A program made the translations under genes and the position numbers. A stretch of 217 nucleotides of DNA, from the NCBI RefSeq assembly GCF_003334765.1, contig NZ_QOWT01000149.1. One strand, written 5' to 3'. This DNA is from Escherichia coli (GTDB lineage Bacteria > Pseudomonadota > Gammaproteobacteria > Enterobacterales > Enterobacteriaceae). Of the stretch, positions 1-217 are shown piece by piece; position 1 is the first letter of the stretch, and each line of letters begins with the position of its first letter. Below the pieces are notes generated by a model, which was given only the letters and a program-made list of their open reading frames with translations, had not been told where the DNA came from and ran no database searches.

Positions 1-63
1 CCGGACCATCTGATAGTCGGTGGCAGCCAGGTTTTCTCCTTTGCGGAACACGGTCTGCTTTAA
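1..63 (+). CDS. yeeS: 3' end of a RadC-like (JAB/MPN-domain, YeeS/YfjY-family) protein; 5' end lies upstream of the window
   Basis: Frame 1 reads without stops from position 1 to TAA at 61-63, giving PDHLIVGGSQVFSFAEHGLL*. This matches the C-terminal pattern I recall for RadC-family proteins (DH-L/I-I-V/I-G ... S-F-A-E-x-G-L/W-L/I). The symbol is assigned by synteny with the downstream DUF987 gene, not by sequence identity; the paralogs yfjY and ykfG cannot be excluded. Only 20 codons are visible. Confidence 0.75.
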   Translation, partial: PDHLIVGGSQVFSFAEHGLL

Positions 64-64
64 C

Positions 65-91
65 CCGTCACCGTCACCACCACATCACACC
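65..91 (+). repeat. C/A-rich short tandem repeat tract in the intergenic spacer (CCGTCA x2, then CAC/CA units)
   Basis: Direct reading: CCGTCA at 65-70 and 71-76, followed by CCACCACATCACACC at 77-91. The tract is almost devoid of G and T. Function, if any, is unknown. Confidence 0.4.
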
Positions 92-117
92 TGTTTTCAC
101 TTTTATCTTCTGTCTTC

Positions 118-122
118 AGAGG
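118..122 (+). promoter_or_regulatory. Shine-Dalgarno / ribosome-binding site for the downstream DUF987 gene
   Basis: AGAGG at 118-122 lies 9 nt upstream of the ATG at 132-134, which is acceptable spacing for base pairing with the 16S rRNA anti-SD. Confidence 0.55.
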
Positions 123-131
123 TATCACACC

Positions 132-217
132 ATGAAAATCATCACCCGTGGTGAAGCCATGCGTATTCACCAACAACATCCGACATCCCGTCTTTTTCCG
201 TTCTGTACCGGTAAATA
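132..217 (+). CDS. yeeT: 5' end of a DUF987 / YeeT-family small protein of unknown function (about 73 aa in full-length homologs); 3' end lies downstream of the window
   Basis: ATG at 132-134 is preceded by the AGAGG SD and is the first canonical start in this frame. The frame is open to the window end, giving MKIITRGEAMRIHQQHPTSRLFPFCTGK plus a partial codon. This matches from memory the N-terminus of E. coli YeeT (MKIITRGEAMRIHQQHPTSRLFPFCTGKYRWHG...). The paralog ypjJ cannot be excluded from this fragment alone. Confidence 0.85.
   Translation, partial: MKIITRGEAMRIHQQHPTSRLFPFCTGK

Follow-up and report, generated by a model that had tools for sequence, protein, structure and literature searches.

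The junction between a RadC-like gene and a DUF987 gene in Escherichia coli raises the question of how expression reaches the downstream gene across an intergenic stretch which only Escherichia copies possess, and whether that stretch is passive spacing or a control element in its own right. The DNA considered here (the window) is 217 nt long and holds the 3' end of the former gene and the 5' end of the latter. Frame 1 of 1–63 gives the end of the RadC-like protein, PDHLIVGGSQVFSFAEHGLL, followed by a TAA stop codon at 61–63; the DUF987 ORF begins on the + strand with the ATG at 132 and encodes MKIITRGEAMRIHQQHPTSRLFPFCTGK. The 68-nt spacer of the original prediction is thus recovered, from the stop and start codons, at 64–131. 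Many E. coli chromosomes contain the window with 100% identity, and in these the two genes are annotated as encoding JAB-domain/RadC family and DUF987 proteins. The full-length upstream protein scores 149 bits against the RadC family TIGR00608 (cut-off 134) and the full-length downstream protein matches Pfam DUF987 (PF06174) with E = 2e-39. In K-12, the equivalent pair is yeeS-yeeT of the cryptic prophage CP4-44. In strain D8 (locus L001), the genes for a GTPase, the Ag43 adhesin, a DUF932 protein, an antirestriction protein, the RadC-like protein and the DUF987 protein lie on one strand, followed on the same strand by cbeA, cbtA, a DUF5983 pseudogene, DUF957 and DUF4942. The features of the window are collected in Table 1.

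Table 1. Features of the 217-nt window, with the evidence on which each is placed.
Feature	Positions	Strand	Basis
RadC-like / JAB-domain gene, 3' end (yeeS-type)	1–63	+	Translation, RefSeq annotation, TIGR00608
Intercistronic spacer, 68 nt	64–131	+	Promoter and terminator scans, spacer-length comparison
Variable 5' part of the spacer	64–79	+	Variant lists, diversity 0.042 with indels
Conserved spacer core, 46 nt, CACATCACACCTGTTTTCACTTTTATCTTCTGTCTTCAGAGGTATC	80–125	+	Diversity 0.008
Shine-Dalgarno sequence GAGGT for DUF987	119–123	+	Direct reading, alignments
Hypervariable linker, Shine-Dalgarno sequence to start codon	126–131	+	Diversity, variant list
C-rich, G-poor 78-nt stretch with the RUT features	69–146	+	Composition
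Predicted RBS-occluding RNA structure (unvalidated)	93–139	+	Folding
DUF987 gene, 5' end (yeeT-type)	132–217	+	Translation, PF06174

A survey of DUF987 genes in one genome per species gave 80 loci, 78 of which had enough upstream DNA to be informative. Every one of these 78, which represent about 45 genera, has a RadC-like gene as the immediate upstream neighbour of DUF987, in the same orientation. In these loci, from other Enterobacterales, the RadC stop and DUF987 start are -4 to 20 nt apart with one exception (77 of 78), and 10 of the 77 show an ATGA overlap of the two genes; Escherichia albertii is the only surveyed species with the same 68-nt spacer. The gene order is also the same in three K-12 prophages. 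The K-12 paralogues ykfG-ykfH (CP4-6) and lfgB(yfjY)-ypjJ (CP4-57) have an 8-nt gap, and in these short-spacer pairs the Shine-Dalgarno sequence overlaps the RadC stop codon (TGAGGTATTACATG). The CP4-57 cluster has been described as an operon, yfjXY-ypjJ-yfjZF (lfgABCDE), in which MqsA binds ahead of lfgA, and lfgA and lfgB are jointly repressed (PMC10846083).

Variation on this arrangement is seen just downstream of the window. In the E. coli copies L095 to L100 (locus positions of about 1048–1216), the gap from DUF987 to the next gene is 18, 61, 75 or 162 nt, and the downstream partner itself changes, being a DUF8835 protein in L098 and an antitoxin with an internal stop in L097, which suggests module shuffling at this point. 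Three loci carry unexpected taxonomic labels. In L006, a 464-nt contig labelled Mesorhizobium caraganae, the DUF987 gene is 95% identical to that of E. coli, and L042 and L063, both labelled Chryseobacterium sp. 18061, are RadC-DUF987 loci of the Enterobacterales type; all three are probably contaminated or mislabelled assemblies.

It had been claimed that the spacer contains no GC-rich hairpin followed by a U-tract and that its sigma70-like hexamers are poor, and both statements are borne out by searches that covered consensus signals only. A consensus scan of the window detected no promoter-like site, whichever strand was read, and nothing resembling a terminator on the + strand, its sole terminator-like match being a weak 5-bp hairpin on the - strand (154–142); the K-12 copy of the junction is likewise without a promoter-like or + strand terminator-like site. 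There is no intrinsic terminator, in the sense of a G+C-rich hairpin and U-tract on the coding strand, in the window or in the K-12 copy, and no pair of sigma-70 hexamers 16–18 nt apart is positioned to initiate transcription within 64–131. On direct reading, the sequence from the stop codon to the first T-tract has no G residues other than G67, G73 and G93, which makes a G+C-rich hairpin impossible there. In a position-weight promoter scan, which is approximate in its hexamer frequencies, the best promoter for initiation in or near the spacer scored 0.47 bits, a value exceeded by 99% of mononucleotide shuffles and by 93.5% of 217-nt windows from the same locus; lacUV5 scored 12.7 bits in the same scan. 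Since its score lies below that of 99% of shuffles, the spacer is unusually poor in promoter-like sequence. It should be noted that the position-weight scan found no good sigma-70 promoter for the cluster as a whole either, so promoter scans are of limited power here. A check by eye for a DnaA box, IHF, Chi, ops and boxA sites and alternative sigma factor motifs revealed none that was convincing.

These results bear on whether a promoter of a non-consensus or activator-dependent kind might lie in the conserved core of the spacer and give rise to a separate DUF987-cbeA-cbtA transcript. The candidate would be the -10-like TATCTT at 104–109, which taken alone scores 4.9 bits as a -10 element but has neither a -35 partner nor a TG extension, such that the best combined score is the 0.47 bits already given; the consensus scan, moreover, is blank in two variants of the junction. 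The strong conservation of the core, described below, is what an operator plus promoter might show, but the gaps of -4 to 20 nt in the relatives leave no room for such a promoter. There is also a transcriptomic hint. An independent-component module of the K-12 transcriptome is named 'flu-yeeRS' and is described as the flu-yeeRS genes. A name that ends at yeeS may indicate that covariation with the genes before the spacer does not extend to yeeT, cbeA and cbtA; if these three genes truly lie outside the module, covariation ends at the spacer. The name would favour an internal promoter, and also the attenuation considered later. Overall, an internal promoter is unlikely. Text searches of the literature for yeeS, yeeT and cbeA returned nothing on their transcription, and the SMRT-Cappable-seq, Cappable-seq, Adams 2021 and RhoTermPredict supplements, in what may be incomplete form, held no entry for these genes or coordinates.

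The positions of terminators in the D8 locus are informative about the extent of the transcription unit. Strong + strand terminators are found at 5869–5895, directly after the Ag43 gene, and at 9674–9700, after DUF957, together with a terminator-like site at 6112–6131, just upstream of DUF932; from the start of DUF932 to 9674, there are weak intragenic matches only. Gene order, the short gaps, the operon described for CP4-57 and these terminator positions together point to a shared upstream promoter as the likeliest arrangement and, on this comparative evidence, the RadC-like and DUF987 genes are most likely co-transcribed. The claim that DUF987 is transcribed from a promoter upstream of the RadC-like gene therefore stands as the best-supported reading. 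It needs qualification in two respects: the argument for co-transcription had considered hairpin terminators alone, when a spacer this rich in C could also permit Rho-dependent attenuation, and the picture of simple read-through had treated as passive spacing what is a lineage-specific, constrained element.

Some further observations concern the control signals of the cluster. No good sigma-70 promoter emerged from the 327 nt that separate the Ag43 terminator from DUF932 (5849–6175 in L001). The best + strand promoter candidates before the antirestriction gene lie within the 3' part of DUF932, at 6785 and 6915, and the region that they span (6785–6942) roughly matches the position of the MqsA-bound control region in the CP4-57 paralogue. 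On the opposite strand, the weak hairpin at 142–154 of the window, at the 5' end of DUF987, has a U-rich tail and is retained in K-12, and two - strand promoter-like sites occur in the DUF987-cbeA gap (8377–8435 in L001). The hairpin and these sites could delimit an antisense RNA over DUF987, but promoter-like matches are not enriched regionally.

We now turn to the spacer itself. Among 5,426 complete E. coli genomes, 4,723 (87%) carry it, at about two copies per genome and 11,743 places in all, and no annotated feature lies under it among the matches listed for those genomes. A genome-wide search found no sites beyond those expected for the RadC-DUF987 junction, and a BLAST-short search of 100 loci returned homologous junctions and chance 10–13-mers only. 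In comparison with the short-spacer relatives, the spacer amounts to some 50–60 nt of extra sequence between the RadC stop codon and the Shine-Dalgarno sequence, present in Escherichia copies only, with the GAGGTAT motif common to both arrangements.

Constraint on the spacer was assessed from 101 copies from genomes, viral contigs and metagenomes, which, where both flanking genes were intact, reduced to 85 unique haplotypes. Across these, nucleotide diversity is 0.008 in the core, 0.012 at the first and second codon positions of the flanking genes and 0.084 at their third positions (216 sites); the core is thus about ten times less diverse than the neighbouring third positions. None of 20,000 resamples of third positions was as low as the core, and only 1% of contiguous 46-nt windows of the RadC gene were. 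A smaller set of nine copies gives a similar result, with 1 of 45 core columns variable vs 29% of third positions. The sequence on either side of the core is far from invariant. The 5' part of the spacer has a diversity of 0.042 plus indels: a CCGTCA duplication, which 68-nt copies have and 62-nt copies lack, and a CA insertion, seen rarely, that yields a 64-nt form. On the other side, the last 5 nt before the ATG reach 0.23, about 2.7 times the third-position value; CACACC, CCCATT, CCCACT, CACATC and CCTATT are among the variants of the linker. It is because the invariant block is so sharply bounded by variable sequence that we consider the core to be under selection, rather than conserved through recent ancestry alone. 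Judged from these comparisons, the spacer is an Escherichia-specific, selectively constrained element and not neutral filler. As for the hypervariable linker, it might allow the efficiency of translation to be tuned from copy to copy.

One conceivable source of constraint is coding: the core might encode a small protein, the candidates being an antisense ORF and a read-through extension of the RadC-like protein. There are reading frames that could be so interpreted. An antisense ORF of 37–39 amino acids (MLLVNTHGF...IPLKTEDKSENRCDV...) runs on the - strand from 179 to 60, spanning the spacer, with a stop codon that overlaps the RadC stop codon, and it is intact in 84 of the 85 haplotypes. In frame 1, the RadC TAA is followed by 23 open codons (64–135) up to the TGA at 133–135, which overlaps the DUF987 start (ATGA); the 6-nt indel preserves this frame, and the rare 64-nt variant alone disrupts it. 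However, 3 of the 11 variable core sites fall at third positions of the antisense ORF, which by our own count is the chance expectation, the hypervariable linker lies in the middle of that ORF and alters its amino acids, and no canonical start codon occurs in the core on the + strand. The absence of codon-position bias and the known 2-nt insertion variant make coding unlikely, and the genomes listed carry no annotation under the spacer. The antisense ORF probably does not represent a gene, and the open read-through frame is probably a matter of chance in G-poor sequence; we regard hidden coding of any kind as very improbable.

The origin of the extra DNA can be approached from the same alignments. 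That the spacer is a decayed duplicate of the RadC 3' end was rejected as a demonstrated origin and kept as a hint: local alignment to the RadC end of the same locus is at the level of shuffled sequence. Alignment of the spacer with the short-spacer junction is marginal (p about 0.06–0.08) and is driven by TCTG.CTT..GAGGTAT.ACA. An imperfect direct repeat was observed, with copies 56 nt apart: GGTCTGCTT at 52–60, in the RadC end, and TTCTGTCTT at 108–116, before the Shine-Dalgarno sequence; in the short-spacer relatives, it is the RadC end that aligns with the second copy. The pattern hints that the extra DNA may have arisen via insertion or duplication at the gene end, with support that is marginal (p about 0.06).

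The composition of the spacer is unusual in a manner that is relevant to termination. Positions 64–118 are 40% C and 7% G, and the 78-nt stretch 69–146 contains 27 C and 7 G (C/G = 3.86), which ranks it among the top 0.5% of locus windows. RhoTermPredict defines a RUT site by a 78-nt window with C/G > 1 and C residues spaced every 11–13 nt (PMC6407284). The stretch has both the composition and six regularly spaced C residues, although the spacing pattern alone occurs in 24% of locus windows and so adds little. Pause motifs of the form GGN8YG start at 150, 223 and 249 (the last two beyond the window, in L001), within the 150 nt allowed by the predictor, which is weak evidence for so short a motif. 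A C/G ratio of at least 3 is rare among validated RhoTermPredict predictions, the predictor is permissive (23,930 predictions in K-12), and Rho usually requires 70–80 nt of free RNA (PMC6407284). The untranslated RNA here is 68 nt, part of which would lie under terminating and initiating ribosomes, and a longer free stretch would depend on poor initiation at DUF987. The cluster's other peak of C over G, of similar degree, is the 46-nt cbeA-cbtA gap (8766–8830 in L001).

It follows that the missing hairpin terminator does not exclude termination, since the C-rich spacer fits the RUT definition. Rho might load on the C-rich, ribosome-free leader when DUF987 is poorly translated, and terminate transcription within DUF987 or before the toxin-antitoxin genes, which would partly uncouple these from the genes upstream. 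Such attenuation is compatible with a shared promoter and contradicts simple read-through. Besides the composition, the C spacing and the downstream pause motifs, it is favoured by a ribosome-binding site for DUF987 that is predicted to be relatively occluded (opening energy 11.1 kcal/mol) and by the name of the K-12 module. On the other hand, Rho loading depends on composition rather than on exact sequence, and so leaves the diversity of 0.008 in the core unexplained. Given so permissive a predictor and an untranslated stretch of only 68 nt, attenuation by Rho should be seen as a possibility rather than a finding, and one that is less likely than not.

Alternatively, the constraint might act through translation or RNA processing. 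The core is pyrimidine-rich as well as C-rich and ends in a Shine-Dalgarno sequence, GAGGT, which direct reading places 8 nt ahead of the DUF987 ATG. The predicted fold of 50–160 pairs 107–112 with 117–122 in a hairpin that sequesters the Shine-Dalgarno sequence, 93–99 with 133–139 in a helix that covers the start codon, and 78–83 with 148–153 in an outer helix, and the same helices are predicted for the K-12 variant and for the alignment consensus. The opening energy of the DUF987 ribosome-binding site, mentioned above, compares with 4–7 kcal/mol for most genes of the cluster. A structured translational switch, in which the first two of these helices join the core to the Shine-Dalgarno sequence and start codon, could hold DUF987 translation down, and five one-sided changes that preserve pairing as G-U wobbles are consistent with it. 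The fold z-scores (-2.1 and -1.6) are not significant, however, and there are no compensatory changes, it being noted that 12 of the 17 pairs are invariant and leave little variation to judge by. Three independent pair-breaking changes all fall within the Shine-Dalgarno hairpin, unpaired positions of the core are as conserved as paired ones, and no Rfam 15 covariance model matches in or near the spacer at E values up to 1. The structure is accordingly a weakly supported prediction, with no covariation and z-scores short of significance.

Another version of the same idea is that the core is a processing site. RNase E cleaves at the motif RN↓WUU, which by our own reading is matched by two stretches (for example, A99-C100↓U101-U102-U103), and cleavage there might split the mRNA into segments that differ in stability. 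In either version, control by structure or processing seems doubtful to us.

Taken together, the evidence leads us to regard the spacer as an intercistronic leader within an operon that would be transcribed from upstream of the RadC-like gene, a reading to which we would give a probability of about 65%. Transcription would initiate upstream of the RadC-like gene, probably before the antirestriction or DUF932 genes, and we infer a continuous transcript that would cross 64–131 into DUF987 and run on towards the cbeA/cbtA toxin-antitoxin genes. In the relatives, the abutting or overlapping genes, with the DUF987 ribosome-binding site inside the RadC end, would permit translational coupling. Stop and start codons that overlap or lie a few nucleotides apart, as expected of coupled pairs, are found in those relatives and not in the window; with 68 nt between them, direct coupling by termination and reinitiation is unlikely here. 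The roughly 50–60 bases added between stop codon and Shine-Dalgarno sequence in the Escherichia yeeS-yeeT lineage mean that DUF987 has to be initiated independently, from the conserved leader at 80–125. This leader, which we take to act in translation initiation or regulation, would supply DUF987 with its own ribosome-binding site and may permit Rho-dependent attenuation before the toxin-antitoxin genes, and in these ways the spacer probably tunes the expression of the downstream genes.

Besides the name of the K-12 module and the limited power of the promoter scans, two points count against the leader reading in its simplest form. The tight conservation of 46 nt exceeds what a generic leader for the landing of ribosomes needs, and the composition fits a Rho loading site. 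Attenuation by Rho and control by structure or processing are not exclusive of an intercistronic leader; they are the main ways in which simple read-through could be incomplete. A bolder proposal combines them: that the core is a previously undescribed cis-regulatory RNA, inserted in Escherichia, which replaced coupling and now gates the share of transcription and translation that passes from the antirestriction and RadC genes to DUF987 and CbeA/CbtA, via Rho loading, occlusion of the ribosome-binding site or both. We offer this as speculation that is more probably wrong than right.

The probable co-transcription of two neighbouring genes is, in itself, routine operon annotation; the conserved core is a modest new lead. 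Few accessory modules recur as often in E. coli as the islands that carry it. Should the core prove a genuine control point, it would account for the way in which toxin-antitoxin expression is uncoupled from the antirestriction and RadC genes upstream, and it would provide a defined 46-nt target for mutagenesis.

Comparison with known systems places the window most closely beside the CP4-44 yeeS-yeeT junction of K-12 (NC_000913.3, 2076755–2076816). This is the same element, with an identical core and identical flanking genes, and it too is without a promoter or terminator match. It differs in being 62 nt long, with one CCGTCA unit fewer, in the linker between the Shine-Dalgarno sequence and the ATG, and in its upstream context, which is flu-yeeR-yeeS in K-12 and DUF932-antirestriction-RadC here. 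The lfgABCDE cluster (yfjX-yfjY-ypjJ-yfjZ-ypjF) of CP4-57 and the cluster of ykfG-ykfH in CP4-6 share the order of antirestriction, RadC-like, DUF987, antitoxin and toxin genes, and the former has been described as one operon with its control region before the first gene (PMC10846083). In contrast with the window, the CP4-57 and CP4-6 pairs have the 8-nt gap (TGAGGTATTACATG), with the Shine-Dalgarno sequence over the RadC stop codon, and lack the 46-nt C-rich core. Translationally coupled pairs, with ATGA overlaps or gaps under about 20 nt, represent the state of all of the non-Escherichia relatives, as opposed to the 68 nt between stop and start here. Finally, the junction resembles cases of intra-operon Rho-dependent attenuation in its excess of C over G, its regular C spacing, the pause motifs downstream and its location between cistrons of an acquired island; it departs from them in the shortness of the untranslated stretch (68 nt), and the exactness with which it is conserved is greater than a loading site needs.
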